Assembly: GCA_035471785.1 (NCBI GenBank)
Contig: DATIPQ010000098.1
Location: forward strand, 41,446-105,445
Length of the DNA stretch: 64,000 nt
Source of the DNA: Acidobacteriota bacterium
GTDB lineage: Bacteria > Acidobacteriota > UBA6911 > RPQK01 > DATIPO01
Direction: 5' to 3'
The notes under the pieces: generated by a model
Seen by the model: the letters and a program-made list of their open reading frames with translations, nothing else
What the model was told of the DNA's origin: nothing
Databases searched by the model: none
Part shown: in pieces, positions 826-62,886 of the stretch
Layout of the letters: every line of letters starts with the position of its first letter
Position numbering within the stretch: the stretch's first letter is position 1
Position numbers and translations under genes: made by a program

Positions 826-1389
826 CTAGCGGTCTTTGTGGGGGCTGATCCAGAGGCGCACCCTGGCGCGGTCGTCTCCGTCGACGATGTCGACCAGCGT
901 GACATCCTGCTGCGCGTAGCTGGACAAAACGTCCAAAGCGGCACTCAGGTTGAGTCTGTCCGAGGAGCCGGAAAAGAGCGCATCGACGATGGCGATGGGC
1001 AGGCGCATGTCGACCCGGTCACGAGAACCCCGGCTGGAGCGGACGATCAGGTACTCGCCTTCCAGGGCCAGAACCAATTCGCTTCGCCGGCCTCTTATCG
1101 AAGCCAGCCTGTAGTCTCCTTCCGCCTTGATGGTTTGCCAGATCTCCCGCATCTCCCGCGCGCTCAATTCGCGGTCATGGATCTCGACCTGGGAAAGATC
1201 TGCCCTCATTTCGTCCTCGACTATGGGCAAGAGCAGCTTGGCGAAGCTCAAGGGCAGATTGATCCGTACCCCTTCGTTGCTTCCTTCCTCTTCTACCGAC
1301 AGATGCAGCCATTGTCCCCCAAAGGCAGGGACCGTGAAGAGAAGCAGGGTCAAGAGCAGGGCGGTAATCGATGGTGTGTTTTTCGTCAT
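826..1389 (-). CDS. Hypothetical secreted protein
   Basis: Internal Met start MTKNTPSITALLLTLLLFTVPAFG gives a signal peptide. The longer 286-aa ORF upstream is an Arg/Gly-rich extension that would overlap the chrA end. GC3 bias is good. Confidence 0.55.
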   Translation of the reverse strand: MTKNTPSITALLLTLLLFTVPAFGGQWLHLSVEEEGSNEGVRINLPLSFAKLLLPIVEDEMRADLSQVEIHDRELSAREMREIWQTIKAEGDYRLASIRGRRSELVLALEGEYLIVRSSRGSRDRVDMRLPIAIVDALFSGSSDRLNLSAALDVLSSYAQQDVTLVDIVDGDDRARVRLWISPHKDR

Positions 1390-1481
1390 GGCTTGGTGCC
1401 TCCTTACATGAGCGCTAACGCAGTCGGGAGGCGAGAGGTTTAGCCGAAGGGACAGCATTCCCAAATCCTGAGGGACTGGCT

Positions 1482-2648
1482 TCACATCAGCAGCCAGCCC
1501 AGCAGTCCGCCCAGGACCACCACCAGGCCGCTGTTGAGCTTGAAGCGGTAGAGCAACAGCAGCGAGAGCGCCGTGATAAGGGCGGGAGGCCATCCGGTCA
1601 CCACTTGAATGCCCAGATTGACGGCCACAGCGGCCATCAAAGCCACGGCGCTGGCATTGACCGCGTCCAGAAAGGCACCGGCCCAACGGCTTTCACGCAG
1701 GCGCGGTACGAAGCGGCTGAGGACGAGAACGAAGATGAAGGAAGGGGTGAAGATGGCCACGGTGGCCACCAAAGCGCCCTGCCAGCCCTGGATGAGATAG
1801 CCGACGAAGGTCGAGGTGGTCAGCACCGGCCCCGGCGTGAACTGGCCCACGGCGATGGCGTCGATGAGCTGCTGGGACGTCAACCAGGCCTTCTCGCGTA
1901 CCAGTTCGCCTTCCAGGTAGGCGACCAGCACGTATCCGCTGCCGAAGAGGATGCAGCCGATTTTGAGGAAGAAGAGAGCCAGTCCCTGCAGGCTGGGGGA
2001 TGAAGCTTGCGTCCCCGGCGCGGCTTGGAGCAAAGGCAGGATGAGCAGCAGGGGCAATGACTTCACTCCCTTGAGGAAGGGTGCCAGCCCGGCCAGCCAA
2101 AGCATTCCCGCCAGACCGCCCCCTATGATGAGCAGCGCCTCGTCCCAGCCCAGGAAGGAAAGGGCGATGAGAAGCGCGGCCAAAATACCTAGCGAAACGC
2201 GATCGATCGCTTTGGGGACAAAGCGCCACACCGCCAGGGCGATGACGGCGATCACGGCCGGTTTGATGCCCCGCAGCAAGGGCTCTACGTTGGGGAGGTC
2301 TCCGTAGGCCACGTAGAACCAGGCCAGGAGTCCGGTCATGGCGACGGCCGGCAGTATGAAACAGGCCCCGGAGGCCAGCATCCCAGTCCATCCGCCCAAA
2401 CGCAGGCCTAGATGGATGGCCATCTCGGTGGAATTGGGTCCGGGAATCAGATTGGTGGCGCCTACCAGGTCGAGAAAGTCCTGTCGTGAAATCCACCTGC
2501 GGCGATTCACCACTTCGTCTTCCATCATGGCGATGTGGGCCGCGGGCCCTCCAAAGCCGAGGACTCCGATGCGGAAGAAGACGGCGGCCAATTCGGCCAG
2601 GCCGGGTTGCCTGACCTCCGTAGCCTTGGCGGCGGAGGGTTGAGACAT
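1482..2648 (-). CDS. chrA: Chromate transporter ChrA (CHR family)
   Basis: 388 aa. FFRIGVLGFGGPAAHIAMMEDEVV... matches the duplicated CHR-domain architecture. It is polytopic membrane protein. Confidence 0.9.
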   Translation of the reverse strand: MSQPSAAKATEVRQPGLAELAAVFFRIGVLGFGGPAAHIAMMEDEVVNRRRWISRQDFLDLVGATNLIPGPNSTEMAIHLGLRLGGWTGMLASGACFILPAVAMTGLLAWFYVAYGDLPNVEPLLRGIKPAVIAVIALAVWRFVPKAIDRVSLGILAALLIALSFLGWDEALLIIGGGLAGMLWLAGLAPFLKGVKSLPLLLILPLLQAAPGTQASSPSLQGLALFFLKIGCILFGSGYVLVAYLEGELVREKAWLTSQQLIDAIAVGQFTPGPVLTTSTFVGYLIQGWQGALVATVAIFTPSFIFVLVLSRFVPRLRESRWAGAFLDAVNASAVALMAAVAVNLGIQVVTGWPPALITALSLLLLYRFKLNSGLVVVLGGLLGWLLM

Positions 2649-2764
2649 ATCGAGTTCTTACTTTCGCGGCCTCGCGGCAGCCAGCGGAGGAAACCGCTGC
2701 GGACCGCGGGGCATCTTTGAGAAGGTGGCCAATTGACGGCACCTTCATTTGATAGGCGATCACC

Positions 2765-3541
2765 ATGACGGATGCAAGTACCAGGCGTGTCGTTTTTGAA
2801 AGCAGCCAAGGCCTGAAGCTGTCGGGCATTCTGCATCGACCTTCTGAGAGCCGGGGCTGCGTCATCCTCTCGCATTGTTTCACCTGCAACAAGAACTACA
2901 AGATTCTGGTTCGCCTGAGCCGCGCCCTGGCCCAAGCCGGCATTGCCTCGCTGCGCTTCGACTTCGCCGGGTTGGGCGACAGCGAAGGCGAGTTCGAGGA
3001 GACCACCATCTCCTCCGACAGCCATGACCTGGAGCAGGCCGTCCGCTGGGCGGTGAAGGAAGGCATGGGGCCGGTGGTCCTGGCCGGCCACTCGATGGGC
3101 GGGACCATCAGCATCGTCACCGCCGGACGGCTTCCCGAAGTGGCCGGACTGGCCGTCATCGGGACGACCTCGGATCCGGGCAACATCTACCGCCTGCTGC
3201 CTGGCCTCGACCCCGCCCGCCGTCCGCCCGAGAACTCGGTGGACGTCACCATCGCGGGCCGATCCTACCCCATCAGCCAGGAATTCCTGCGCGACCTGGA
3301 GGGACTGTCGCTCACCGGGACTTTGGCCTCCTACCAGAAGCCTTTCCTGGTGATGCACGGGACCGAGGACAAGACAGTGGGCATCGAGCATGGAATCAAG
3401 CTCTTCCAGACCGCCAAGCAACCCAAGTCCTTCCTGGCCATCCCCGGAGCCGAGCACCTGCTGGGACGGCGGCGCGATACCGACTTGGCCGGCGCCGTAC
3501 TGAGCGCCTGGGCCGACTCGTCCCTGCGTCGGGCCGTCTAA
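2765..3541 (+). CDS. Alpha/beta hydrolase (dienelactone hydrolase/S9-like)
   Basis: GHSMGG nucleophile elbow and a C-terminal His motif. 258 aa. Confidence 0.8.
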   Translation: MTDASTRRVVFESSQGLKLSGILHRPSESRGCVILSHCFTCNKNYKILVRLSRALAQAGIASLRFDFAGLGDSEGEFEETTISSDSHDLEQAVRWAVKEGMGPVVLAGHSMGGTISIVTAGRLPEVAGLAVIGTTSDPGNIYRLLPGLDPARRPPENSVDVTIAGRSYPISQEFLRDLEGLSLTGTLASYQKPFLVMHGTEDKTVGIEHGIKLFQTAKQPKSFLAIPGAEHLLGRRRDTDLAGAVLSAWADSSLRRAV

Positions 3542-6739: not shown

Positions 6740-8152
6740 CTATTTTTTGGCGAAAAAGGGCTCGTATTTTTCTTTGCGGGGAGGGGGCGTCAGCATGGAT
6801 ACAAGCCACAGCATCAAGACTGAAATGGCTACGGCGGGAAGCACGGCTCCCATTGAAGACTGGAAGAGTTCCTTGAGCCAGTACTCCCATAGCAGGGTCA
6901 CTCCGGTTCCGGCGAAGATGGAGGCCACGGCTCCTTGGGCGGTAGCCCGCTTCCAAAAGAACACGGCCAATAAGGCGGGCGTGATGCCGGCTCCGTAGAT
7001 GGTGTAGGCGTGCAGGGCGACCTCGAGGAACTTGTCGTCCAATTGAGAAATGCCGAAGGCGGCCAGGCCCAACACCAGCGTAGTGATCCTCAGCATCAAG
7101 ACTAGATGCTTGCCGCTGGCCTCGGGATAGATGAAGCGCTCGTAGACGTCGCGGATGAGGGCGGTCCCAGGCGCCAGCAAGTAAGAACCTGCTGTCGAGA
7201 GGACAATGGCCATGATGGTGGTCAACATTAGGGCTCCGACCGCCGTGGGAAGAAACTCTTTTGAAACCTCGGCGATGACATACCCGGGATTTTCCAAGCC
7301 CGGCTTGAGCGCGCTTCCAACCCAGCCGGTGAGGATGATGGTCACTTCCATGAAACCGATGCCGACGACGCACCACAGCACTGCCAGCTTGGCCACCCCC
7401 GCATCCCGCGCCGAAAGGAAGCGCTGGTACATGTTGGCATCTCCCAGAATCAGGAAAAACGAGGGCAGAAGCAGATTGAGAGCGCCGATCCACCCGATGG
7501 GGCCGAAGATCTCCAGGTGGCTGGGCTCCAGCGCCTGCCTGATCCCGTCCACGCCTCCGGCTCGGAAAAAGAGCATGGGCAGCGTGACCGTGATGCCCAC
7601 GATCATGGTGATGCCCTGAATCAGACCGATGTTGGCAATGGACTTCATGCCGGCTATGGCGGTGAAGAGTATGATGAAGGCCGCCGCCACGGCTGATGCC
7701 ACTTCGTCGCTGATAGGGTCCCACACGATGTGAAGCACCGCCCCCGCCGCCCGGTACTGGTAGGAAACGATGGTGATGTAGGCGATGGTCATGGTGATCA
7801 CGCCCAAGACTCGGGCGGTGGCGTTGTAGCGCTGCTCGAGCAGGTCCTGGATGGTGATCTGCTCGGTCAGGCGCACCCGTCCGGCCAGGAAGTAGAGCAC
7901 GATGACGCCGAAGACGCTGGAGAGCGGAATGATCAGGGTGGCGATGCCGACCTCGTAGGTGCGCTCAGCGTTGCCGAAGATGCTGCCGGTGCCGATCCAG
8001 GTGGCCAGCATGGTTCCGAAAAGGACCAGCGGCGAAAGGGTGCGGCCGGCTACTGAGAAGTCTTCCTGGCTGCGCAGTCCGCGGCCTTGCCAAACGGCTA
8101 CGCCAACCAGGGCCAGCAGGTAAATGAGGATGACGGCGAAGTAGATGTTCAT
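6740..8152 (-). CDS. Sodium:solute symporter (SSF family)
   Basis: 470 aa, about 13 TM helices, SSF-type sequence. Its ATG sits directly after the TAA of the upstream gene (TAAATG). Confidence 0.9.
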   Translation of the reverse strand: MNIYFAVILIYLLALVGVAVWQGRGLRSQEDFSVAGRTLSPLVLFGTMLATWIGTGSIFGNAERTYEVGIATLIIPLSSVFGVIVLYFLAGRVRLTEQITIQDLLEQRYNATARVLGVITMTIAYITIVSYQYRAAGAVLHIVWDPISDEVASAVAAAFIILFTAIAGMKSIANIGLIQGITMIVGITVTLPMLFFRAGGVDGIRQALEPSHLEIFGPIGWIGALNLLLPSFFLILGDANMYQRFLSARDAGVAKLAVLWCVVGIGFMEVTIILTGWVGSALKPGLENPGYVIAEVSKEFLPTAVGALMLTTIMAIVLSTAGSYLLAPGTALIRDVYERFIYPEASGKHLVLMLRITTLVLGLAAFGISQLDDKFLEVALHAYTIYGAGITPALLAVFFWKRATAQGAVASIFAGTGVTLLWEYWLKELFQSSMGAVLPAVAISVLMLWLVSMLTPPPRKEKYEPFFAKK

Positions 8153-8875
8153 TTAGGGCGTCAACTTGTAAGTCTTGCGGTCCGCCCCGAAATTGCCCAC
8201 CGAGGCTTGGGCGGCGGTAACCGTGATGGACAAAACCTCGTAGTCTTTCTCGACCTCAGGCACCTTGAAGCGCCCCTCGAATACGTTCTTGCGTCCGGCG
8301 TATGTCAACGGCATCTCCCGCACCAGCCGGTCTTGATGCTCGATGCGGGCGGCCACCTTGATCTTGTCGGCGTCCCAGAGCCCTCCGGGCTCGATGGGGC
8401 ACCCTCAAAGCAAGTGGACATGGGCTCTCAGGTCGACCTCGGCTTGGGGCTGATAGACGTCGGCCGGAGTCGGGGTCATGATGCCCACGATGAACCCGTA
8501 AAGCTGCAGGACCAGCCCGTCGCCCTCCATGTGGCGTCCGGGAATCAGCCAAGTGGTGGCCGAAGCCCTCTGCATGGAGGCCGGGAAAGCCAGGGGCCCT
8601 TCGGCCGCGACTTCCACCAGGGTCGGGCGGTCGATCCGCAACTCCACGCAAAAAGAGGCCGTCCCCGGGGTATCGAAGCGCGCCCTGCCGCGTTGGGGCG
8701 GCTGCTTCATGATCGACTCGGTGTCGCCCGAGCCGCCCTCATGAATCCCGCGGGCCAAGACATCGCCGGTTTGGCAGTCGCGCACCGTTATCCGGCATCC
8801 GCCCACCAAGGAGCCGATGATCTTGGCGTCGCAGGAGACGACGTGCACTACCAAGCGGGTTCCTTGCGTCTTCAC
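8153..8875 (-). CDS. Uncharacterised protein with an in-frame TGA (candidate selenoprotein, about 240 aa; Sec at codon 157)
   Basis: Track ORFs 8405..8875 and 8153..8356 are in the same frame, separated only by a TGA at 8405..8407. GC3 bias is continuous across the TGA. Translation reads ...RAHVHLL-U-GCPIEPGGLWDADKIKVAARIEHQ.... A SECIS-like hairpin lies just downstream. tRNA-Sec and selD are in the window. The gene is translationally coupled to the symporter. Confidence 0.5.
8374..8398 (-). other. bSECIS-like hairpin downstream of UGA 8405..8407
   Basis: CCCA-UC-GAGCCC-GGA-GGGCUC-UGGG. It begins 7 nt after the UGA. The apical GGA loop is 18 nt from the UGA. It shares the CCGGAGG apical motif with the selD SECIS. 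Confidence 0.4.
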
Positions 8876-9084
8876 GAATCCCTCCCATGCTTGACACTTG
8901 AAAGTGCTGAAGAGATTAGCAGAATCCGCCAGGAGAGAAAACTCCCCTGCTCAACTCTGGTGCCGGCGCAATAGATTTTGCGCGCCGCGCATCGCGGTTA
9001 CGCCCCTGCAACACTCCCAACAGCGCGGCGGCGGCCAACGCCGGAATTGAGGGTCAGACCCTGGCTCGGCGCCTGCCTTGAGGC

Positions 9085-21601: not shown

Positions 21602-21700
21602 GGAGGTACGTCTCGTCTGGTGACGGGCCTGGTCTTCAAAACCAGTCGAGCCGCGTCGAGAGGCGTGGCTGGTGGGTTCGATTCCCATGTACCTCCGCCA
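21602..21700 (+). tRNA. selC: tRNA-Sec (selenocysteine tRNA, anticodon UCA)
   Basis: 8-bp acceptor stem GGAGGUAC/GUACCUCC with G discriminator and CCA. Anticodon stem CUGGU/ACCAG with loop CUUCAAA (UCA). Long variable arm. 5-bp T stem (8/5 architecture). 99 nt. Confidence 0.85.
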
Positions 21701-21806
21701 GTCCATTTCTTCGAGGGGACGATACTTGCAAGCTCAACACCTCATCGATCAGATCACCGAAGAGATCTTCCGGCGGCTGGAAGGCCAGGGCTTCAACGCC
21801 GGAGGG

Positions 21807-22583
21807 ATGGCTTGCCAGGCGGCCTGCATCGAGAAGGACGCAGACAAGGTCCGCTTTATGATCGAGTGCGGAGCTCAGAGGCTGGGCTTTCACGCCGATA
21901 AGCCATCAGCAGCCGGAGATCTGGCCAGGTATATCGACCACACCTTGCTCAAACCCACAGCCACACGCTCCCAAATCGAAAAGCTTTGCCAGGAAGCCCG
22001 CCAGTATCGATTCGCCTCTGTCTGCATCAACCCCTCTTACGTGGGCCTCGCCGCCGACCAATTGAAAGGGACGGCGGTGGCGGTCTGCACCGTCGTCGGG
22101 TTTCCTTTAGGCGCCAACGCTTACGACGTTAAAGCCTACGAGGCGCGCCGGGCCATCTGTGACGGGGCCGACGAAATCGACATGGTCATCAACATCGGTG
22201 CCCTCAAGGGCAACCAGGACGATGTCGTTCTTCGAGACATCGCGGCCGTCACCGAGGCCTGCCACGATTCGGGAGCCATCTGCAAGGTCATCATCGAGGC
22301 AGCCTATTTAAACGAAGACGAGAAGGTCCGGGCCTGCCAACTCTCTAAAAAAGCTCACGCCGACTTCGTGAAGACCTCGACGGGATTTGGCCCGGGAGGA
22401 GCGACCCTGGAAGACGTGGCCCTGATGCGGAGGACGGTCGGATCGGAGATTGGAGTCAAAGCCGCCGGTGGAATCGGCGATTCCGAGGCCACCCGAAAAA
22501 TGCTGGAAGCCGGCGCCACCCGCATCGGCGCCAGTGCCGGAATCAAGATCGTACAGGGTGAGAAGGGAAGCGAAGTCTATTAG
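21807..22583 (+). CDS. deoC: Deoxyribose-phosphate aldolase
   Basis: DHTLLKP...CINP...VVGFPLG...MVIN...KVIIE...KTSTGF...AAGGI. The start is moved downstream of the tRNA-Sec gene. An N-terminal extension is possible. Confidence 0.8.
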   Translation: MACQAACIEKDADKVRFMIECGAQRLGFHADKPSAAGDLARYIDHTLLKPTATRSQIEKLCQEARQYRFASVCINPSYVGLAADQLKGTAVAVCTVVGFPLGANAYDVKAYEARRAICDGADEIDMVINIGALKGNQDDVVLRDIAAVTEACHDSGAICKVIIEAAYLNEDEKVRACQLSKKAHADFVKTSTGFGPGGATLEDVALMRRTVGSEIGVKAAGGIGDSEATRKMLEAGATRIGASAGIKIVQGEKGSEVY

Positions 22584-22597
22584 CCGGCTCCCTTTTT
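22565..22597 (+). terminator. Candidate intrinsic terminator after deoC
   Basis: GGGAAGC/GCUCCC stem followed by UUUUU. Confidence 0.35.
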
Positions 22598-22805
22598 CGA
22601 CAGGGTAACTAGCCGCCGATAAAGGACTTAATCGACTTATCCTCGATACGCACAGCACCTCTTTCCCACAGCCCGATGAAAGCGGAAGAGAGACTTTTTC
22701 TTCCACCGCTTGGAGTGCTTTTTCAAAAGGCGATGTGAACGGATTTCAAACGTAGGAAGCGAGAGCAGCGATGCGCTTGCGGCGATTTTCACAACATCCA
22801 CAGGC

Positions 22806-22852
22806 CCTACTAGTAGGACTATTAATAAACACTCTCTTCTAGTTCACTAGAA
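22806..22852 (+). promoter_or_regulatory. Two CTAG-containing palindromes in the amidase promoter region (CCTACTAGTAGG at 22806..22817; TTCTAGT-tc-ACTAGAA at 22837..22852)
   Basis: One perfect 12-bp palindrome and one 7-bp inverted repeat flank an AT-rich stretch, 45 to 90 nt upstream of the amidase start. Confidence 0.35.
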
Positions 22853-22895
22853 GGGAATCTCGGGAACCACCGGGAGGGGAGAAAATACTGCGATT

Positions 22896-23918
22896 ATGAG
22901 CGATCTCCAGTACAACGCGGCCGTCATACAGACCGATCAGGAGAATCCCCGCAACCGCCAGGAGATGAAGCGCAACACCCGGCGCATCCTGGAGCTGATC
23001 GATTGTGCGGTGGTCGGCTACAAACCCTTCCTGCCGGTTCGCTTGCTGGTTTTTCCCGAATTCGCCCACTCCGCCCCGGCCTACCAGACGCTCAAGGAAC
23101 TGCGCGGCAAGCTGGGGGTCGAGATCCCCAACGAGCACACCGAGAAACTGTGTCGGAAAGCCAGGGAATACAACGTGTTCATCCAATCCGGGAGCATGCT
23201 CGAGGTGGACCCCAAGTATCCCAATGCGCTCTTCAATACGACCTGTCTGATCGGTCCCCAGGGGCTGCTCAGCAAGTACCGCAAGGTCTATCCCTGGATC
23301 CCTTGGGAGGTCCACACCAGTCCCCATGACATCGAAGGCTATGAAGAGGAGATGTTTCCGGTGGTCGACTGCGAGATCGGCCGCCTGGGCGCCGCGATTT
23401 GTTACGACTGGCTCTTCCCTGAAACGTTACGCCAATTGACGGCAAACGGGGCTGAGGTGCTGATCCGCGTGTCCGCTTACATGGATCCTTTCGGCGCCAC
23501 GCAACCCAACGACTGGTGGACGGTGGTCAATCGCTGCAGGGCCCTGGAGAACATCGCCTACGTGGTGGCCGCCAACCAGGCCGCCAAGCTGGTTCACTAC
23601 CCGCCTTTCTCGTGGCCGGGAGGCAGCATGATCGTTGATTACGACGGGCGCCTGGTGACGCAAGCCACGCCTGGCGACGGGGAAAAGATAACGGTTGGAC
23701 CGGTGGATGTTTCATTGTTGCGAGCTGAGCGCCGCAAACGAAGCGCACATCAAATGTTGGCTCATCTGCGCTGCGAGGCTCACCCTCTCTACCGCAAGTC
23801 CGTTTACCAGGGAGGATTTAATGGCCGCGGCGACTTCACCTATCAGGAGAACGAGGAGAAAATAGCCCAGGCCAAGGAGAAATTGGGGTACCTTGAAAGG
23901 CGAAACGAGAAGGGATGA
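22896..23918 (+). CDS. Aliphatic amidase/formamidase (nitrilase superfamily, AmiE/AmiF-like)
   Basis: LVFPEF...KYRKVYPWIPWE...AAICYDWLFPE aligns with AmiE catalytic E-K-C regions. GGGAGGGGAG RBS. Confidence 0.85.
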   Translation: MSDLQYNAAVIQTDQENPRNRQEMKRNTRRILELIDCAVVGYKPFLPVRLLVFPEFAHSAPAYQTLKELRGKLGVEIPNEHTEKLCRKAREYNVFIQSGSMLEVDPKYPNALFNTTCLIGPQGLLSKYRKVYPWIPWEVHTSPHDIEGYEEEMFPVVDCEIGRLGAAICYDWLFPETLRQLTANGAEVLIRVSAYMDPFGATQPNDWWTVVNRCRALENIAYVVAANQAAKLVHYPPFSWPGGSMIVDYDGRLVTQATPGDGEKITVGPVDVSLLRAERRKRSAHQMLAHLRCEAHPLYRKSVYQGGFNGRGDFTYQENEEKIAQAKEKLGYLERRNEKG

Positions 23919-23981
23919 CGAGTTGCTCCTGATTGCGAAAACTGTTAGGATCTAATCCTTTTTTGAGAAGAGAGGTAACAG

Positions 23982-24119
23982 ATGAAAAGGACTTTTCAGC
24001 CTAATCGCCGCCGCCGCGCCAAGAAACATGGTTTTCGTGCCCGGATGCGCAGTGTCAGCGGTCGCCGGATCATTAATCGCCGCCGCGCCAAGGGCCGGAA
24101 GAAGGTCAGCGTGTCCTAG
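23982..24119 (+). CDS. rpmH: 50S ribosomal protein L34
   Basis: [45 protein letters not shown]. It is below the ORF track's size cut-off. Confidence 0.9.
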
Positions 24120-24481
24120 TGTCCGGAGACTTTCGCTTAAGGCGGGAAATGCGGTTGCGCAAGCGCCGTCAGTTCCTCTCCTTGTACAGCGAGGCGGACC
24201 GAGTCCACACCCCTTTCTTTGTCCTGTTTCTCCGCGCCAACAACCTCCCACACAGCCGTCTCGGCGTCACCGTCTCTAGAAAGATAGGGAAGCCGATTAT
24301 TCGGAATCTCGTCAAGAGGAGGTTGCGCGAGATCTTCCGTCAAGAGCAGGCGAATATCGACCCGCCCTGCGACGTTGTAGTAAATGTCAAGAGGCCGGCT
24401 TCGCGGGCCGCCTACCAGGAGCTTCGGAAAAGCTTCGAGGGAGCGGTGAAACGCTGGAGGTTAGGAGCGAAGGAAAGGTGA
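24119..24481 (+). CDS. rnpA: Ribonuclease P protein component
   Basis: GTG start overlaps the rpmH stop. Basic RnpA-like sequence in the conserved rpmH-rnpA context. Confidence 0.85.
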   Translation: MSGDFRLRREMRLRKRRQFLSLYSEADRVHTPFFVLFLRANNLPHSRLGVTVSRKIGKPIIRNLVKRRLREIFRQEQANIDPPCDVVVNVKRPASRAAYQELRKSFEGAVKRWRLGAKER

Positions 24482-24687
24482 AAAGTTTTGTGGTGGGCTT
24501 GCTCAAGGGATACAAGCGGTTCGTATCGCCGATACTCCCTAAGGCCTGCCGGTTCCATCCCACCTGCTCTGAATACATGCGCGAAGCTGTGGAAAAATAT
24601 GGAGTGATCAAGGGCGTCGGCCTGGGCGTCCGTAGGATAATGCGTTGCCATCCTTGGAATGCGGGAGGGTTTGACCCGGTTCCTTGA
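24478..24687 (+). CDS. yidD: Membrane protein insertion efficiency factor
   Basis: YKRFVSPILPKACRFHPTCSEY signature. Confidence 0.85.
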   Translation: MKSFVVGLLKGYKRFVSPILPKACRFHPTCSEYMREAVEKYGVIKGVGLGVRRIMRCHPWNAGGFDPVP

Positions 24688-24713
24688 AGAGGGAGAATGA
24701 GGCTCGACACCCT

Positions 24714-26468
24714 ATGAACGAACTGCAGGATCCAAAAACCCAAGGATCGGAGTGGCGGGTCATCCTGGCCGTTGTCTTGTCCATGCTGGTTGTGCTGAGC
24801 TTCCAGTTCTTCATGCCGCGGCCGGCGAGCACTCCCGTTGAGTCGATTCCTCCGCCGGCCGTCCAAGGAGAAGACCCCGAAGCGTCCGCCGCAGGTACGC
24901 AGAACGCCACTGCTGAAACCGCGACTCCGCCGCCGTCCTCAAACGCCCGGCAGGGCGCCGAAGAATTGCCGCCGACGCAGGCATCCCCAACTGAGGTGGT
25001 GATGGAGAACGACGCCATGCGGTTGATATGGAGCAACCGCAGGGGCGGTCTGGTGTCGGCCGAATTACTCAACTACTTCAATGACAAAGGCCTGCCCGTG
25101 CAAGTACTTCCTCAGAACTTGCCCGAAGACGCTACGCGGCCCCTGGAAGTGAAGGTGGCCGGCGAGGTCTACGAGTCGATTCTGAGGGAAGCGGTCTACG
25201 AAGTGGAAGGGCCATCGGGCGGACGGGTTCCCGCGGGCGGAGAATTGAAGATGCGTTTCCGCCGCGGGCCTCTGCAGGTGGAAAGGCGCATCCGCATTCC
25301 CCGGGAGGGCTACACGCTGCAGGTGAGCACGGACGTGCGGGTGGACGGGGTGAGCACCGCCTACACCTTGACTATGGGCGCCGGAATCGGGCGACATGGT
25401 CCGGAGAGCGGTTGGCAAGGCGATTTCCGCTATCCCCGCGTGGTCTATCGCGGCGCCGGCGGACTCACCAGTTTCGGTTCAGGCGGTCTGGAAGGCGAAA
25501 GACATATCAGCGGCAGCCCGGTGGATTGGCTGGCTGTCGACAGCCTCTATTTCACCTACGTATTACTGAGCGGCGAACGCCTTTTTCCTCGCGCCGAGGT
25601 CTTCGAACGTAGCTACGCCTTTCCCAACGCTGAAGGCGAAGTCGAGGAGAAAGTCCTGCAACTGGCCGAGGTGCAGGTGCCGGCCGGGGCCCAGGTGGAT
25701 CTGTTTATCGGTCCCAAATACCCTGAGCGGTTGCGCGCGGTTGAGCCAAGCCTGCCCCAGCTCATCGACTACGGGTACCTTGAGATTCTGGTCGTTCCCC
25801 TCAAGTGGGCGCTCAACAGGGCCAACGATTTCATCCACAACTACGGCTTCTCCATCATTTTCCTGACCTTCGCCATCAACCTGGTGCTGGCCCCTATCCG
25901 CATCAAACAAGTCCGCTCCATGAAGAAGATGGGCGAACTCCAACCGCAGATGAAGGCCATCCAGGAAAAGTACAAGAAGATGAAGCGCGATGACCCGCGG
26001 CGCTTAAAGATGAACGAAGAGGTGATGGCGCTCTACAAACAGCACGGCGTCAATCCCCTGGGCGGATGTCTCCCGCTGCTGCTGCAGATGCCGTTCCTCT
26101 TCGCCTTTTATCAGATGATCGCCTACTCGATCGAGTTGCGGGAAGCGCCGTTCATGCTGTGGATACAAGACTTGTCGCGCCCCGATCCCTATTACATCAC
26201 CCCCCTGGTCATGGGCGCAACCATGGTAGGCCAGCAGGCCATGACGCCTTCCATGGGCGACGCGACTCAGCGCAAGATGATGATGTTCATGCCGGTGGTC
26301 TTCACGTTCTTCTTCCTGAACGTGTCGAGCGGTCTGGCGATTTACTTTCTTTTCAGCAATGTCTTCGGAATGGCCTTCCAAAAGGGATTCCAGGCCTTGA
26401 TGCCGGAAGAGGAAAAGAAAGTGTCGAGCAAACCCAAGGGTCCATCCAAGAAAAGCAGGAGGAAGTGA
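24714..26468 (+). CDS. yidC: Membrane protein insertase YidC
   Basis: Large periplasmic domain plus a C-terminal 60-kDa IMP core (LPLLLQMPFLFAFYQ). ATG 24714 is used; the in-frame TTG at 24684 is the alternative. Confidence 0.85.
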   Translation: MNELQDPKTQGSEWRVILAVVLSMLVVLSFQFFMPRPASTPVESIPPPAVQGEDPEASAAGTQNATAETATPPPSSNARQGAEELPPTQASPTEVVMENDAMRLIWSNRRGGLVSAELLNYFNDKGLPVQVLPQNLPEDATRPLEVKVAGEVYESILREAVYEVEGPSGGRVPAGGELKMRFRRGPLQVERRIRIPREGYTLQVSTDVRVDGVSTAYTLTMGAGIGRHGPESGWQGDFRYPRVVYRGAGGLTSFGSGGLEGERHISGSPVDWLAVDSLYFTYVLLSGERLFPRAEVFERSYAFPNAEGEVEEKVLQLAEVQVPAGAQVDLFIGPKYPERLRAVEPSLPQLIDYGYLEILVVPLKWALNRANDFIHNYGFSIIFLTFAINLVLAPIRIKQVRSMKKMGELQPQMKAIQEKYKKMKRDDPRRLKMNEEVMALYKQHGVNPLGGCLPLLLQMPFLFAFYQMIAYSIELREAPFMLWIQDLSRPDPYYITPLVMGATMVGQQAMTPSMGDATQRKMMMFMPVVFTFFFLNVSSGLAIYFLFSNVFGMAFQKGFQALMPEEEKKVSSKPKGPSKKSRRK

Positions 26469-26472
26469 ATCG

Positions 26473-26928
26473 ATGACGGAGCAAAGCGAGAAGCTGGCGG
26501 CCCAGGTGGAAAAATTCATGACCGAGCTGCTCGGGCATATGCAGTTGGATGTGAAGATGGAGTTGGAGGAGACGGACCAGACCATCGAAGTCCGGCTGAG
26601 CGGCGCGGACTCTGAAGTGATCCTCAGAAACGGCGCCCGCACCCTCGAGGCCTTCAACGACATCGTCAATCAGATCTTTTATCAACCTCGCGACGTGCGG
26701 GTCGAGATCGATTGTGAAGATTACCGGCTGGGGCGAGTCCTGGAGTTGGAGCTGTTGGCGCGAAGCGCGGCCGAGAAGACTCGTGTATCGGGCCAGTCCT
26801 TCCGCTTTCAGCCCATGCCGCCGGCTGAACGCCGCACCATTCATCTCACGCTGGCCAAGGAAGAGGGCGTGCGCACGGAAAGCTCGGGCCACGGCACCAA
26901 CCGCCATGTCGTGGTCATGCCCGCCTAG
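26473..26928 (+). CDS. khpB: Jag/KhpB RNA-binding protein (KH + R3H)
   Basis: C-terminal R3H-like motif (ERRTIHLTLAKEEGVRTESSGHG). Confidence 0.8.
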   Translation: MTEQSEKLAAQVEKFMTELLGHMQLDVKMELEETDQTIEVRLSGADSEVILRNGARTLEAFNDIVNQIFYQPRDVRVEIDCEDYRLGRVLELELLARSAAEKTRVSGQSFRFQPMPPAERRTIHLTLAKEEGVRTESSGHGTNRHVVVMPA

Positions 26929-26940
26929 CGAGGTGCCGAC

Positions 26941-28317
26941 GTGTCGGCTGATCTCAACGACACGATCATCGCTCTAGCCACGGTTCCCGGCCGCAGCGCT
27001 CTGGCGCTATTGCGCATCAGCGGCCCACAGTCCCTCGAGTTTCTGACCCGCCTCTGTGAGGCCCGGCAGTGGAGAGAACGTCCCCGCCAGGCACGGTTGA
27101 CGCGCCTCAACGATCTGCAAGGCGGCGAAATTGACCGCGGCCTGGTCACCTTCTTTTCCGCTCCGCATTCCTACACGGGACAGGACGTGGTCGAGATCTC
27201 CCTGCACGGGAGTTCCTGGGTTTGCCGCAAGGTCCTGGAGTGCGCACTGCAGTCGGGACTCCGTTTGGCGGGTCCGGGCGAGTTCACTCAACGCGCCTTC
27301 TTGCTGGGGAAGATGGATCTGATCCAGGCCGAGGCGGTGCGCGATCTGATCGAGAGCGAAACGGCCTTCCAAGCCAGGGTCGCGCGCAGCCAGATGGAGG
27401 GCGCTCTGAGCAGGCGCCTGCAACCTCTCAAGGATGAACTGGTCAAAGTCATATCCCACATGGAGACGGCCCTGGAGTTCGTAGAGGACCAGGTCGAACC
27501 CGAAGGCCGGGAAGCCCTGACGCAGCGTCTGCTGGAAGCGGCCGATTTTCTGGCTGAGCTGGAGGAGAGTTTCCAGGTGGGACGGCTCTTGCACGAGGGA
27601 ATTACGATAGCTCTCGTAGGTCGTCCGAACGTGGGCAAGTCGAGTCTCTTCAATGCTCTCATGAGCGATGAGCGCGCCATCGTCACCGAGATTCCGGGCA
27701 CCACGCGCGACGCTTTGAGGGAGAGGGTCGATCTGCACGGAATCCCCGCCCAGATCGTGGATACGGCCGGCATCCGGGAAACCCGGGAGGAGGTTGAAAA
27801 GCTGGGCGTGGAACGCACTTTGCAGATGGTGGCCGAGGCCGACGTGAGCGTCTTCGTGGTGGATGGGGCGGAGCCTTTCTCCGACGAGGATAGTAGATCA
27901 TGGCAGGCGGTGGAGGGACGGCGCCCGCTGCTGGTGGTCAACAAGCGCGACAAAGGGGTGTCGATCGAGCTTCCTGAGCGGGTCGAGCAAGGCTGCATCG
28001 GCCGTCTGGAAGTGTCGGCGGCGAGCGGGGAAGGGGTGGACCGGCTGCGGCAGGAATTGTGGCGCTTGGCCGGGGGAGAGGAAGTGGCGGCGGGCGGGGA
28101 GGCGGCGTTGCTGACCAATGTGCGCCAGCAAGGCTGCGTGCGCGAGTGCCGGGAGGCCCTCTTGGAGGGCTTGCAGGGATATCGTTCAGGCTTGAGCGAG
28201 GAATTTGCCCTCTATGACCTGCGCCGGGCCTTGGAGGCCCTGGGCAGGCTGACGGGCGAGGTGACGGTGGAGGAGATCCTGGGCGAGATCTTTTCCACGT
28301 TCTGCATCGGCAAGTAG
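26941..28317 (+). CDS. mnmE: tRNA modification GTPase MnmE
   Basis: GRPNVGKSSLFNAL, DTAGIRET, and a C-terminal CIGK. Confidence 0.9.
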   Translation: MSADLNDTIIALATVPGRSALALLRISGPQSLEFLTRLCEARQWRERPRQARLTRLNDLQGGEIDRGLVTFFSAPHSYTGQDVVEISLHGSSWVCRKVLECALQSGLRLAGPGEFTQRAFLLGKMDLIQAEAVRDLIESETAFQARVARSQMEGALSRRLQPLKDELVKVISHMETALEFVEDQVEPEGREALTQRLLEAADFLAELEESFQVGRLLHEGITIALVGRPNVGKSSLFNALMSDERAIVTEIPGTTRDALRERVDLHGIPAQIVDTAGIRETREEVEKLGVERTLQMVAEADVSVFVVDGAEPFSDEDSRSWQAVEGRRPLLVVNKRDKGVSIELPERVEQGCIGRLEVSAASGEGVDRLRQELWRLAGGEEVAAGGEAALLTNVRQQGCVRECREALLEGLQGYRSGLSEEFALYDLRRALEALGRLTGEVTVEEILGEIFSTFCIGK

Positions 28318-32571: not shown

Positions 32572-32650
32572 GAGAAAGGCCATTATAACGCGAGAGGCTA
32601 TCTCTCCCTTCAACCACGCCGCTTCCGGCCTCTCGTCTATAATGCCCAGC

Positions 32651-33697
32651 ATGACCGATAAGCGGAAGAGACTGACTGAACTGGTGTCCTGCGCCGGTTG
32701 AGCGTCTAAGCTGGCACCGGAGGTGCTGAAGACAGTCCTGAGCAATCTGCAGGGATGGAATGACCCGGCCGTCCTCGTCGGGTACCAGACTGCGGATGAC
32801 GGGGGAGTGTATCGTCTGTCCGACGAACTGGCACTGGTGCAAACCGTGGACTTCTTCACCCCGGTGGTCGACGACCCCTTTCAATATGGTCAGATCGCCG
32901 CCGCCAACGCTCTCAGCGACGTCTACGCCATGGGCGGAGAGCCGCGCTTCGCCCTTTCCGTCGTGGGCTTTCCCAAGTCGGGGCTGGACACCGGCATCCT
33001 AGGGGAGATAATGGCGGGAGGCAGCGCCAAGCTGGCCGAGGCCCGCGTTCCCGTCATAGGGGGCCATTCCGTCCAGGACCCTGAGATCAAGTTCGGCTAC
33101 TGCGTGACCGGCGTGGTCTCTCCCCACGCCTGCTGGACCAACGCGGCGGCCCAGGCCGGGGACGCGCTGGTGCTGACCAAACCGCTGGGCACCGGCATCA
33201 TCACGACCGGGGTGAAGTTCGAGAAGACGCCTCCACCCGTGCTGGAAGCCGCTCTGGAGGTGATGCTCAGGCTCAATGATGTCGCTGCCCGGGCCGCGGC
33301 CTCCTATTCCGTTCATTCCGCCACCGATATTACCGGCTTTGGACTCCTCGGCCACGCCCTAGAAATGGCCCAGGCCTCCGGCGCCCGATTGCGCCTGCGG
33401 GCCTCTCAGGTTCCCCTCATTGCAGGCACGCGGGATCTAGCCCAAACGGGCATGTTGCCGGGAGGAATCGAGTCCAACAGGGCTTATCTGGGGGATCGAG
33501 TCGAGTGGCATTCCACAACCCTCATTGTGCAACAGATCCTTCTCGATCCGCAGACCTCGGGGGGACTCCTTTTCAGCCTGCCGCCGGCTGACGCGGAGAA
33601 ACTCGTCGCCGACCTCGCCGGGCAGAACCAAGAGGCCGCCATAGTGGGCGAAGTCGTGGAGAAGCGCGACGAGATCCTGATTGAAGTCGTACCGTAG
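32651..33697 (+). CDS. selD: Selenide, water dikinase (selenophosphate synthetase), Sec-containing form with in-frame UGA at 32699..32701
   Basis: ATG 32651 gives [30 protein letters not shown]..., which aligns with E. coli SelD [23 protein letters not shown] with Sec in place of Cys17. The track ORF begins at GTG 32723, downstream of the UGA. SelD core motifs are present throughout. Confidence 0.8.
32714..32726 (+). other. bSECIS-like hairpin of selD (GCACC-GGA-GGUGC)
   Basis: 5-bp stem, 7 bp with G-U extensions. Apical GGA loop 17 nt after the UGA. It shares the CCGGAGG motif with the 8374..8398 hairpin. Confidence 0.45.
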
Positions 33698-52330: not shown

Positions 52331-55300
52331 ATGATTCATCGCGAAATACAATCCCTGCTGCACGAGCGCATCCTGCTGTTGGACGGCGCCATGGGCACCG
52401 CCATCCAGGACCAGAAGCTGGCCGAAGAGGACTATCGGGGATCCCGCTTCAAGGATCACCCTTGCGATCTGAAGGGCAACAACGATCTGCTCTGTCTCAC
52501 CCAGCCGCAACTGATCGAAACCATCCACAGGCGCTATTTGGAGGCGGGCGCCGACTTCATCGAGACCAACACCTTCTGCGCTTCGGCCGTCTCTCTGGCC
52601 GATTACCAAACGGGAGATCTGACCTACGAGATCAATCTGCAGGGGGCCCGCCTGGCCCGCCAGGCCGTGGAGGACTTCTGCCGCAGCCAAGGCACGGGTC
52701 CGCGCTGGGTGGCGGGAGCCATCGGCCCCACCAACCGCACCCTCTCCATCTCGCCTGACGTCAACGACCCCGGATACCGGGCCGTGACCTACCGCCAGAT
52801 GCAGGACTCCTACTTGCAGCAGGTTCTGGGGCTGCTGGAAGGCGGAGTCGATGTGCTGCTCATCGAGACCGTCTTCGACGCCCTCAACTGCAAAGCGGTG
52901 CTTTCAGCCATCGCTCAAGCGGCCCAGGAGACCGGCCGCCGGACGCCCGTCATGGTTTCAGGCACCGTGGTCGACAACAGCGGACGCACGCTCTCGGGAC
53001 AAACGCCTGAGGCCTTCTGGATTTCGCTGCGCCACGCCCCCCGGCTGCTGGCGGTAGGACTCAACTGCGCCCTGGGATCGGAGCAGATGCGTCCCTACAT
53101 TGAAGAGATCTCCCAGGTGGCCGACACCTACACCAGCCTTTATCCCAACGCGGGACTTCCCAACCAGTTCGGCGAGTACGACGAGAGTCCGGAGTTCATG
53201 GCCCGCCATCTGCGCGACTATGCTGAGAGCGGCTTCGTCAACATGGTGGGAGGCTGTTGCGGCACCACTCCTGAGCATATCCGGGCCTTCGCCGAGGCCG
53301 TGCGCGGCCTTCCTCCGCGCCAGGTGCCCAAGATGGAGCCATTGTTGCGGCTGAGCGGATTGGAACCGCTGGTGGTCCGCCCCGACTCCAACCTGGTCAA
53401 CGTAGGCGAGCGCACCAATGTGGCGGGATCGCCCAAGTTCAAGCGCCTCATCATGGAGGGCGAATTCGAAGAGGCCCTCTCGGTGGCGCGTGAGCAGGTG
53501 GAAAGCGGGGCCCAGATCATCGACGTCAACATGGACGAGGGGATGCTCGATTCCGAGGAGGCCATGCGCAAGTTCTTGCTGCTGCTCTCGGCCGAGCCGG
53601 ACATCGCGCGGGTGCCGGTCATGATCGATTCCTCCCGCTGGACGGTGCTGGAAGCCGGGCTGCAATGCCTGCAAGGCAAGAGCGTGGTCAATTCCATCAG
53701 CCTCAAGGACGGCGAAGACTCCTTTCGCAAGCAGGCCAGCAAAGCCCTCGAATATGGAGCCGCCGTCGTGGTCATGGCTTTTGACGAGAAAGGTCAGGCC
53801 GACAACTTCGAGAGGCGCATCGAAGTCTGCGCACGTGCCTACAAGATCCTGGTGGAAGAGGTGGGATTCCCGCCTCAGGACATTATTCTCGACCCCAACA
53901 TCCTGACCGTGGCCACCGGAATCGCCGAGCACGACAACTATGCCGTCGACTTCTTGCGTGCCACCCGCTGGATCAAGGAGAACCTGCCCTGGGCCAAGGT
54001 CAGCGGCGGAGTCAGCAACATCTCTTTCTCATTCCGCGGCAACAATGTCGTGCGCAGGGCCATGCATTCGGCTTTCCTCTACCATGCCGTGCAATCGGGC
54101 CTCGATATGGCCATCGTCAATCCGGCTCATCTGGACGTCTACCAGGACATCGATCCCGATCTGCTGGAGAAAGTGGAGGACGTGCTGCTCAATCGCCGTC
54201 CCGACGCCACCGAGCGGCTGATCGAATTCGCCGGCACCGTGCAGGAAGGCGAAATTGAAGAAAAGGCCGAGCAGGACTGGCGGGGCCGGCCGGTGGAAGA
54301 GCGGCTCAAGCACGCCCTCGTCAAGGGCGTCGCCGACCACGTGGAAGACGACGTCGAGGAAGCCCGCCGCAGATACCCTTCTCCCCTGGCCGTCATCGAG
54401 GGTCCGCTGATGGATGGGATGAACGTGGTGGGAGACCTTTTCGGCGAAGGCAAAATGTTCCTGCCCCAGGTGGTCAAGAGCGCCCGCGTCATGAAGAAAG
54501 CCGTTGCCTACCTGATTCCCTTCATCGAAGAAGAGCGGCAGGCTTCCGGGGGGAGCAACAGCAAGGGCAAGGTGTTGGTGGCCACGGTGAAGGGAGACGT
54601 CCACGACATCGGCAAGAACATCGTGGCCGTGGTCTTGCGCTGCAACAATTTCGAGGTGATCGACCTGGGGGTCATGGTCCCCAGCGAGAAGATCCTGGCC
54701 AAGGCCCGCGAGATCGGTGCCGACATCATCGGACTGAGCGGGCTCATTACGCCCTCGCTGGACGAGATGGTGCACGTGGCCAAAGAGATGGAGCGGCAGG
54801 ACTTCGAATTGCCCCTGCTCATCGGAGGCGCCACCACATCGCGCGTCCACACCGCCGTCAAGATCGAACAACGGTATCCCAAGGCTCCCGTCGTGCATGT
54901 GCTGGACGCATCGCGCAGCGTCGACGTGGTGCGCCGGCTCATCGATCCCCAATTGCGCGGAACTCTCTGGGAGGAGGTGCGGCAAGACTATGCCCGACTA
55001 CGCGAGCGCTACGCTCAGCGGGGACACTCGACCCGCCTGCTGACTCTGGAAGAGGCGCGCGGCAACCGTCATCAAGTCGACTGGGACCGCGCTCTGCCCG
55101 CACCCCGAGACAGCGGGCTTCAGGTCTTGCGCGACTTCCCGCTGAGCGAACTGCGTAACTATATCGACTGGACTCCCTTCTTCTTGACCTGGGAGCTGAC
55201 TGGAAAGTACCCCGATATTCTCGATCACCCCTCGATGGGAGGCGAAGCGCGCAAGCTGCTGGAGGACGCCCAGTCCATGCTGGACAGGCTGCAAGAAGGG

Positions 55301-56041
55301 AAACTGATCCGCGCCCACGGCGCTTTTCGGCTCTTCCCCGCCGCCCGCGTGGAGGACGACATCGAGGTTTACGCCGATCAAGAGCGCGAGGAGGTGCTGG
55401 CCGTTCTCCATACACTGCGCCAGCAGACCCAGAAAACGGGCGGCCATCCCAATCGGGCTCTGGCCGATTATGTGGCCAGCCGCGAGAGCGGACTGCACGA
55501 CCACCTGGGGCTGTTCGCCGTCACTGCAGGAGATGGCGTGGCCGAGCTGGCCCGCCGGTTCGAGGAAGAGCACGACGATTACAACGCCATTCTGCTCAAG
55601 GCCCTGGCCGACCGTCTGGCCGAAGCTTTCGCCGAGTATCTGCACCAGAAGGTGCGGCGCGAGGCCTGGGGATACGCCGCCCAGGAAGAGCTGGACATTC
55701 AAGCCCTCATCGCCGAAAAGTATCAAGGCATCCGTCCAGCTCCGGGATATCCGGCCCAACCCGATCACACCGAGAAACGCACCCTCTTCCAGTTGCTCGA
55801 CGTTGAGGACAAATTGGGAATCGTGCTGACCGAGAGTTGCGCCATGATGCCGGCGGCCTCGGTGTGCGGCATCTATTTCTCCCATCCCGATTCGGCCTAC
55901 TTCAACTTGGGCAAGATCGGGCGCGACCAGGTCGTCGACTACGCGCGCCGCAAGGGCATGCCGCTGGAAGAAACCGAGCGCTGGCTGGCTCCCGTGCTGG
56001 CCTACGACCCCGACCGTATGGAGGCGGCGGCTCCAGCCTAG
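52331..56041 (+). CDS. metH: Cobalamin-dependent methionine synthase
   Basis: 1236 aa with Hcy-binding, pterin-binding, B12-binding ([11 protein letters not shown]) and AdoMet-activation domains. Confidence 0.9.
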
Positions 56042-56110
56042 GGGTAGCGAGCGACCTCATACCGTCGAGCGCAATTGAGCATTCACCGCGGTCGCTGAAA
56101 CTTGACCCGT

Positions 56111-56140
56111 GTGTGAACTTGTTGGCCACCTAGTGGCCCT
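56111..56140. repeat. Intergenic repeat copy 1 (GTGTGAACTTGTTGGCCACCTAGTGGCCCT), containing GGCCAC-CTA-GTGGCC palindrome
   Basis: 30/30 nt identical to 62887..62916. Flanking CTTGA...CG is also shared. Confidence 0.5.
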
Positions 56141-56190
56141 TGCCCAACCACCAATTTCCTAGGACCAACTACCAAGAGAGAGATCGAGCC

Positions 56191-61570: not shown

Positions 61571-62248
61571 TTACTTGTTGATCAGGTCCCTGATGCGGTC
61601 GATCGTACCTTCGGGATTGCGCATGGCTTCCCGCCGGGCCTGTTCGGCGATTCGGCTGATGATCTGCTGTACCAGTTGGCCCTGAGTGACTCCTTCGCCG
61701 CCTTCGCCGCCGCCCACGTTCTCAAGCGTCACCTTGGGGACCTCGACTTTGAGACCCTGTGCCAAGGGCGGGAGATTGACGGTGGCAACGATGTTTTCAA
61801 CCACGACTTCTTCGATGACGAACCTCTTGCCCCCGCCTCCGTCGGCGGAGTCGTCCGACGACCGGTGCTTGCGCAGGTTCTCTTGGATCGTCTGGATGTT
61901 GGTGCGTCCTCGGGAGCCCTCAACCCAGATTTCGACATTGCTGACGTGAAGGCGCGGAGCCACGATCTTGTCCGCCAGCAGCGTTCCCAGGGAGACGTCT
62001 AGATGGAGGTCGCCTACCCGGGCCAGATGGGGCGACTGAAAGCCTTCGGGATTGTCGATTTCGAGTCCCGACAGGCTGAATCCGCCGCTGAGTATGCCCA
62101 CGTCCACCGAGCCGGCATGAACCGCCACACCGAGTGCGCGGCTGCCCTGGTTTTCGATAGCCGAGGCGGCGATGGAATCGATAAACAGACCTACTGTCAG
62201 GAAGGCCAGCAGCAGGACGACGACAACGGCGATGGCGATCTTTTTCAT
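61571..62248 (-). CDS. Hypothetical membrane-anchored protein
   Basis: N-terminal TM helix (IAIAVVVVLLLAFLTVGLF). It is the first gene of the E1/AT operon. Confidence 0.5.
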   Translation of the reverse strand: MKKIAIAVVVVLLLAFLTVGLFIDSIAASAIENQGSRALGVAVHAGSVDVGILSGGFSLSGLEIDNPEGFQSPHLARVGDLHLDVSLGTLLADKIVAPRLHVSNVEIWVEGSRGRTNIQTIQENLRKHRSSDDSADGGGGKRFVIEEVVVENIVATVNLPPLAQGLKVEVPKVTLENVGGGEGGEGVTQGQLVQQIISRIAEQARREAMRNPEGTIDRIRDLINK

Positions 62249-62860: not shown

Positions 62861-62886
62861 AAGTAGCGAGCAGCCTCTTGATTCGG

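Follow-up and report, generated by a model that had tools for sequence, protein, structure and literature searches.

The 64,000-nt stretch of an Acidobacteriota bacterium genome analysed here (positions 41,446 to 105,445 of contig DATIPQ010000098.1, assembly GCA_035471785.1; hereafter the window) carries on its minus strand, at 8875..8153, what is very probably one selenoprotein gene, in which the UGA codon at 8407..8405 is recoded to selenocysteine (Sec). Two open reading frames (ORFs), 8405..8875 and 8153..8356, had originally been predicted to form one frame split by a single TGA, and reading of the frame confirmed it. A GTG start codon (8875..8873, minus strand) opened a 156-codon ORF reaching the TGA, and the same frame was closed by a TAA stop codon (8155..8153, minus strand) 83 codons past the TGA. 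The whole frame comprised 241 codons with this single in-frame TGA, and the resulting read-through protein of 240 residues agreed with the predicted size of about 240 amino acids. Sec was placed at position 157 (U157; 8405..8407, minus strand) in the context LL-U-G-C-P, the surrounding peptide being HLL-U-GCPIEPGGLWDADK, on account of the Cys column in the homologues. The coding sequence (CDS; 8153..8875) was assigned from the frame, the full-length homologues and the ratio of nonsynonymous to synonymous polymorphism (pN/pS). A Shine-Dalgarno-like GGGAGG was read directly in the sequence 5 nt upstream of the GTG (8881..8886, minus strand), and the relative L001 had AAGGGAGGA at the equivalent position.

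An assembly or sequencing error at 8405 was not borne out, as a separate contig assembled from the run SRR9656207 was 100% identical over 3131 nt, including the TGA. It was also observed that an antisense ORF of 295 codons (8087..8974, plus strand) spanned the entire selenoprotein gene and that similar ones were present in many relatives; this ORF was attributed to the high G+C content and is not considered a gene. Other pairs of ORFs joined by a TGA (829..2895, 55001..56158 and 61574..62905) were rejected, their translations being low-complexity or antisense-like.

With the read-through protein as query, 426 homologues were retrieved. The public annotation of the gene (P0001, a "hypothetical protein" of an Acidobacteriota metagenome-assembled genome, MAG) presents the first 156 codons as a complete protein, and both P0001 and its 74%-identical relative P0002 ended at 156 residues. 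The remaining top matches were 234-405 residues long (mostly 250-300) and covered 82-100% of the read-through protein (mostly 93-100%). All full-length protein homologues contained Cys at the UGA column within the invariant motif C-G-C-P-x-E-P-G-G-L-W-D, so that the Cys aligned to U157, proposed originally as a check, was found in every one of them. The residues C157, C159 and W167 were invariant across 117 Cys homologues. The DNA encoding P0002 had a TGA at the same place, followed by GCPIEPGGLWDAD and 83 more in-frame codons; conserved sequence continued downstream of the stop position, and homologues ending there in their own right were not seen.

A family profile was run against a library of 1.84 billion representatives and matched 825 proteins at E <= 1e-3, 548 of which reached E <= 1e-10, giving a family size of approximately 825 representatives at 50% identity. 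Several of these matches stopped exactly before the Cys column, with the C-termini ...VRML, ...VHML and ...VRLL, and such proteins are gene calls of Sec forms truncated at the UGA. Another protein ending at the Sec column (P0175, 424 aa) carried a 270-residue N-terminal domain without an assignment.

The scan of GTDB species genomes yielded 414 related loci, the best 80 of which were kept for codon scoring. The Cys157-column codon was TGA in 35 and TGC or TGT in 41 of the 76 species-level loci scored, the Sec fraction being inflated because the 80 loci were picked by similarity to a Sec-form query. The Sec-form loci were labelled Acidobacteriota (including Pyrinomonadaceae and Terriglobia), Krumholzibacteriia, Nitrospirota, Cytophagia or plain "bacterium". 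Cys forms were found in Gemmatimonadota and Rhodothermales, and the family also occurs in unclassified MAGs. Within the Acidobacteriota clade to which the window belongs (clade A; 22 sequences), pN/pS was equal to 0.37 before the UGA and 0.39 after it, and the ORF past the UGA measured 83 codons in 19 of the 22 sequences. These values indicate that the 83 codons after the TGA are translated, under the same purifying selection as those upstream. Two clade-A populations were present in the run SRR9656207 (L001/L002 and L087); their genes were 74% identical at the protein level, and both had the TGA and the same upstream glycosyltransferase gene.

The region immediately downstream of the UGA had been predicted to fold as a bacterial selenocysteine insertion sequence (SECIS), CCCA-UC-GAGCCC-GGA-GGGCUC-UGGG, with the loop 18 nt after the UGA, and the hairpin was present exactly in this form. 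Its core (8374..8398, minus strand) was assigned from the fold and from synonymous constraint, and consisted of a lower stem CCCA/UGGG (8398..8395 and 8377..8374), a 2-nt bulge UC, a 6-bp upper stem GAGCCC/GGGCUC (8392..8387 and 8383..8378) and the loop GGA (8386..8384). The UGA-to-loop spacing was exactly 18 nt, and the predicted helix reached over 8363..8409. A 53-nt fold had a minimum free energy of -25.4 kcal/mol (z = -2.6 versus shuffles). This geometry satisfies the published bacterial SECIS model (PMC13188914). As in the consensus bacterial SECIS, the hairpin lay right after the UGA inside the ORF and its apical loop started with GG; unlike the consensus, the loop was just 3 nt long, the minimum that the model allows.

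Since the E-P-G-G-L peptide was conserved in the Sec and Cys forms alike, the synonymous sites were the informative ones. The stem codons were nearly fixed in the Sec loci (GAG in 34/35, CCC in 33/35, GGG in 34/35 and CTC in 33/35), and the loop codon GGN was unconstrained there (T 12, C 9, G 7, A 7). The Cys loci varied in the same stem codons, using CCC 16, CCG 16, CCA 5 and CCT 4 times for Pro, GGC 20, GGG 11 and GGA 9 times for Gly, and six codons for Leu. The full 6-bp stem was found in 32 of the 35 Sec loci versus 3 of the 41 Cys loci; when only the secreted forms were counted, it was kept in 11/13 Sec versus 3/41 Cys loci (Fisher p = 2.6e-7). At the third positions of the four stem codons, both Sec groups had entropies of 0-0.4 bit, against 0.7-1.8 bit for the Cys forms. 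The loop codon had an entropy of 1.7-1.9 bit in all groups, and the flanking codons varied in every group too. On this codon evidence, the hairpin is under RNA-level selection only in the UGA-bearing members, which upholds its original designation as a bacterial SECIS.

Parts of the Sec machinery were encoded in the same window. A tRNA-Sec (anticodon TCA; 21602..21700, plus strand), which the original prediction had listed, was recovered by ARAGORN and also matched Rfam RF01852 with 75 bits. The selD gene (32642..33697, plus strand; TIGR00476, 356 bits) is itself a selenoprotein gene with a Sec TGA at 32699..32701 in the context SCAG-U-ASKL. Its SECIS apex was read as GCACC-GGA-GGUGC (32714..32726, plus strand), in line with the earlier remark that it has the same apical CCGGAGG motif as the hairpin under study; the motif is common to both, and the loop lay 17 nt past the UGA in selD versus 18 nt in the window gene. 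After the tRNA-Sec, at 21672..28317, deoC-like, nitrilase-like, yidC-like and mnmE-like genes were recognized by eye from translations. TGA terminated 16 of the 38 long ORFs in the window, and the genetic code was therefore considered standard; UGA was also the terminal stop of the selenoprotein gene itself in most relatives. The recoding signal is very probably the SECIS hairpin, which is located within the CDS for E-P-G-G-L and has its loop 18 nt past the UGA, and the UGA would be decoded with the cell's tRNA-Sec and with selenophosphate supplied by SelD, both encoded in the window.

The read-through protein and 27 family members were scanned against Pfam and NCBIfam, and no family was found: nothing in NCBIfam matched at E <= 1, and none of the Pfam models reached its cut-off; sub-threshold immunoglobulin-like (Ig-like) matches only were recorded. 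The family profile gave 0 matches against PDB sequences. As a stand-in for the window protein, a Cys homologue with 50% identity to it was modelled with AlphaFold. The model had a predicted local distance difference test score (pLDDT) of 92.9 and a predicted template modelling score (pTM) of 0.86, and was almost all beta-strand; as modelled, the Cys homologue is composed of two Ig-like beta-sandwich domains. The C/U-G-C-P-x-E-P-G-G-L-W-D segment lay between strands 138-147 and 165-172 of the model strand map, where it was predicted to link them by a long stretch with little regular structure, early in the second half of the model. Further invariant residues were D16, K18, G25, G26, G43, G50, T52, N228 and G230. 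These residues are drawn from both halves of the protein, which suggests that they form a shared pocket. In two proteins, P0127 (680 aa) and P0129 (709 aa), the family domain was fused to a beta-lactamase-type serine hydrolase (PF00144), one at each end; the two fusions were independent, and both had C-S-C-P replacing C-G-C-P.

An N-terminal signal peptide was present in most members, in the Sec and Cys forms alike, and most members of the family are presumably exported. All 22 sequences of the window's clade were Sec forms, their frame left no room for a signal peptide and no hydrophobic N-terminal segment was seen in them. They contained two extra invariant cysteines, C15 (in place of R, H, Q or N) and C27 (in place of Ala), as well as Leu where the other members conserve Met155. 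The clade appears from these alignments to have lost the signal peptide and gained C15 and C27.

The gene downstream (6740..8152, minus strand) encodes a 470-aa sodium:solute symporter of the SSS/SLC5 family, assigned by TIGR00813 at 133 bits. Its best equivalogs were PutP and PanF, all three models scoring below their cut-offs, and the nearest solved structure was the choline transporter CHT1, with weak similarity. The symporter ATG at 8152 abutted the selenoprotein TAA, and the tight TAAATG junction described in the original prediction was read directly in the window. By tblastn, the symporter was directly downstream in 16 related loci, within the family only in the window's clade. Of the 19 related loci still reading into the symporter, 17 had overlapping stop and start codons at the junction, as ATGA or GTGA. 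No terminator was found by a scan between the two genes; the promoter and terminator scan was otherwise uninformative, and no riboswitch or known RNA was found in the leader of the selenoprotein gene. Upstream of that gene, a conserved TTCTGCTAATCTC element (8912..8924, minus strand), recognized from motif conservation, resembled an extended -10 promoter (TGnTAnnnT) and is probably the promoter of the two-gene operon. In most of the 22 clade-A loci, the selenoprotein gene was preceded by the motif CTGCTAnnCTC. The TTCTGCTAnnCTC element was found upstream of the first gene only, at the same position in L003-L022 and L026. In several loci this element lay approximately 8-10 nt before the ATG, and such spacing suggests leaderless transcripts there. 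Taken together, the stop/start overlaps, the lack of a terminator and the -10-like element confined to the region preceding the first gene point to an operon with a bicistronic message and coupled translation.

The secreted forms had, each in few related genomes only, neighbours such as a di-heme cytochrome c, SorA/SoxA-like protein, ThiC, DUF523, DUF3179, a TonB-dependent receptor, ArsR and an amidohydrolase. Among the Gemmatimonadota, the Cys-form genes adjoined a DUF3179-like gene in L060, L065, L069 and L071, and a DUF523/DUF1722-like gene in L046, L063 and L069; by eye, from the motifs CPLC and SPSCG, these neighbours look like Cys forms of two catalogued selenoprotein families. The sole cultured isolate among the loci, Roseithermus sacchariphilus (CP030158; L047), had at 4554-4874 an ArsR/SmtB-like helix-turn-helix regulator with C-terminal cysteines, noted by eye; the regulator and the Cys-form gene share a strand, with the regulator upstream at a distance of 40 bp. 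This neighbour hints at control by a metal, a metalloid or a persulfide.

Several observations weigh against the interpretation developed here and were considered together. With regard to recoding, compensatory base changes were not found in the SECIS stem, which was nearly invariant. The stem lacks such variation because it is encoded by an invariant peptide, and the support for the SECIS comes, at the level of codons, from the contrast with the Cys homologues. The locus counts were not independent, as the Sec forms fell into approximately three lineages in a neighbour-joining tree, a pattern that implies two or more switches between Sec and Cys. The selA and selB genes were not found within the 64-kb window, either among the ORFs beside the tRNA-Sec or by a motif search of the whole window. 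Since the neighbours of the tRNA-Sec were not selA or selB, the genes of the Sec machinery appear to be scattered over this genome. With regard to function, the fold searches gave only generic tandem Ig-like matches, none of them informative, and no conserved neighbourhood of the secreted forms was found outside the Acidobacteriota clade. With regard to the symporter, two loci kept the Sec-form gene and an ATGA junction followed by a short remnant of the symporter N-terminus (MNLYFGF...; L018, approximately 5705-5790, and L021, approximately 5705-5900), and no intact symporter was found in them by tblastn. One contig (JGI 3300060026; L090, 3787-4000) had the synteny of the window's clade, namely methylmalonyl-CoA mutase, a LarA-like gene, the symporter, RNase HII and DUF374, and in it neither the selenoprotein gene nor a remnant was found by tblastn. 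In Pyrinomonadaceae, a symporter orthologue was coupled to an M1 aminopeptidase instead. Judged by this gene order, the link between the selenoprotein and the symporter is facultative and not obligatory.

With respect to function, the (Sec/Cys)-Gly-Cys pair, Sec157 and Cys159, is presumably the reactive centre of the protein. We tentatively proposed that it serves in redox chemistry or chalcogen transfer via a selenenylsulfide, a possibility to which somewhat less than even likelihood was given. In such a cycle Sec157 would attack and Cys159 would resolve, and the substrate reduced or carried would be a small sulfur, selenium or disulfide compound. Cys-Gly-Cys is a known disulfide-shuttle motif, exemplified by the C-terminal CGC arm of yeast Erv2 and by CGC peptides used as mimics of protein disulfide isomerase. 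The same tripeptide occurs here, and this mechanistic analogy is behind the redox proposal; however, the folds of those shuttles are unrelated, and no flavin or CxxC partner was evident in the window family. With a single residue between them, Sec and Cys would form a selenenylsulfide ring under strain or else bind a metal in bidentate fashion.

The first alternative is that the Sec-Gly-Cys loop is a site for a soft metal or metalloid (Cu(I), Hg, Cd, Zn, As or similar) and not a redox catalyst. The secreted forms would then be periplasmic metal chaperones or scavengers, and the cytoplasmic clade would have a four-ligand site composed of C15, C27, U157 and C159. Met155, two residues ahead of the motif, was at least 90% conserved in the secreted forms, and a combination of Met and two Cys is typical of Cu(I) ligation; in the cytoplasmic clade exactly two more invariant cysteines were present. 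A HupE/UreJ-type metal transporter, TonB-dependent receptors and the ArsR-type regulator directly upstream in Roseithermus occurred near the gene in some genomes, and several catalogued selenoprotein families bind metal, e.g., CopZ-like, YHS and SO_0444 UxC proteins. However, the neighbourhoods were inconsistent, the match to CrdA was no better than dozens of generic Ig-like matches, no recognisable metal-binding domain was found by the Pfam and NCBIfam scans, and the His seen at position 15 was not conserved. A metal site was considered rather unlikely, though it is the main competitor of the redox proposal.

The second alternative, that the selenoprotein is a dedicated symporter subunit or a solute-processing enzyme forming an obligate unit with the symporter, was considered distinctly unlikely. 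It agrees with the symporter lying immediately downstream in the 16 loci, with the stop and start codons overlapping (ATGA/GTGA) or abutting (TAAATG) in 18 of 19 loci when the window is included, with the missing terminator and with the promoter-like motif conserved upstream of the first gene only. Nevertheless, the association was confined to one Acidobacteriota clade and the secreted members had no symporter nearby, while the syntenic genome lacking the selenoprotein gene, the orthologue coupled to the aminopeptidase and the two loci with a symporter remnant only all argue against an obligate unit. Small partners are encoded just upstream of SSS symporters in other systems, e.g., E. coli yjcH-actP and yhdT-panF, and the two-subunit symporters of the VC_2705 type. 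The position immediately upstream and the tight or overlapping junction are alike; unlike those small membrane proteins, the product in the window is predicted by the homologue model to be a 240-residue soluble beta-sandwich selenoprotein. An identity as a small membrane subunit disagrees with the all-beta soluble two-domain model of the homologue and with the absence of a hydrophobic N-terminal segment in the clade. The junction with the symporter described originally proved conserved. The accompanying suggestion, in which the protein is a partner, or a processing enzyme, of the solute being transported, found little support, given that most family members are secreted and have no adjoining symporter, and given the genomes that kept only one intact gene of the two.

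The weakest alternative, that the UGA does not encode Sec and reflects a pseudogene, two small independent ORFs, an error of sequencing, or suppression (near-cognate or Trp/Cys), has in its favour the public annotation of the first 156 codons and is scarcely credible given the TGA at the same column in 35 species-level genomes, the identical independent assembly, the equal purifying selection on either side, the aligned residue that is always Cys, the hairpin whose synonymous sites are constrained only in TGA-bearing members, the tRNA-Sec and selD in the same window and the use of TGA as an ordinary stop elsewhere in it.

Returning to the selenoprotein with a Sec-Gly-Cys centre, it was compared with the known families. 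A review from 2026 (PMC13188914, Table 1) catalogues 119 families of prokaryotic selenoproteins and gives for every family a Pfam, NCBIfam/TIGRFAM, CDD or PANTHER identifier. The protein was placed outside these 119 families because no Pfam or NCBIfam model matched it, the curated selenoprotein models included, in accordance with the original statement that it matches no nameable selenoprotein family. The entries with only CDD or PANTHER identifiers (TlpA-like, CopZ-like, BtuF, Prx-like and Fe-S oxidoreductase) were set apart from it by fold only, i.e., by the all-beta model. The unnamed hypothetical families DG, DW, DF, GOS_B and GOS_C have NCBIfam models, and the window protein matched none of them. 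The BSepDB database was assembled from previously reported families, and the text of its paper nowhere names Acidobacteriota or Gemmatimonadota.

The closest resemblance was to DUF1573 (PF07610), the UGC selenoproteins that were predicted in symbionts of Olavius algarvensis and are included in reviews of 2022 and 2026 (PMC9312934, PMC13188914). Both have an Ig-like beta-sandwich with a beta-strand running straight into (Sec/Cys)-Gly-Cys-(Thr/Pro), and both occur in Sec and Cys forms; the window family differs in being two-domain, with a long invariant P-x-E-P-G-G-L-W-D tail after the motif. Homology was rejected, since 0 of 27 members matched PF07610 even at E <= 10 and hhalign gave a probability of 9.4% over 17 columns against a sequence scoring 154 bits on PF07610. 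Other UxC/UGC selenoproteins include the UGC TlpA/Prx-like proteins, the thioredoxin-like Sec.2 (UxC) and the SO_0444 Cu/Zn efflux transporter (UxC) (PMC13188914, Table 1). They share the single residue between Sec and Cys, but are thioredoxin-fold proteins or membrane transporters, whereas the window family is all-beta and tandem Ig-like by the homologue model and has no model match. Based on these comparisons, the sequences define a new, widespread and uncatalogued bacterial selenoprotein family, though not a new kind of system.

As regards the operon, translation of the symporter would probably depend on Sec having been inserted 252 nt upstream. The selenoprotein gene can be read to its end only if Sec is inserted, and its stop overlaps the symporter start, so that translation of the symporter is plausibly tied to the selenium supply. 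The selenoprotein and the symporter would probably act on the same imported solute, through a facultative link. A more specific version, in which U157, C159, C15 and C27 of the cytoplasmic clade form a selenium redox or metal centre acting on the solute of the symporter and the transport capacity is set by selenium status, is very doubtful; if true, it would be a selenium-gated transport-and-processing module without a described precedent.

New selenoprotein families are reported regularly, and the present one is a well-supported, widespread addition to the prokaryotic selenoproteome. The gene calls of Sec forms that were checked were truncated at the UGA, and a family profile would correct their annotation. 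The hairpin provides a SECIS example in which the coding constraint on E-P-G-G-L is overlaid on an RNA constraint, the two being separable only via the Sec versus Cys lineages. The scaffold is also unusual, since the reactive Sec would be carried on a tandem Ig-like fold and not on the usual thioredoxin fold. Finally, the existence of predicted secreted and cytoplasmic Sec forms within one family offers a built-in comparison for the role of the Sec-Gly-Cys centre.

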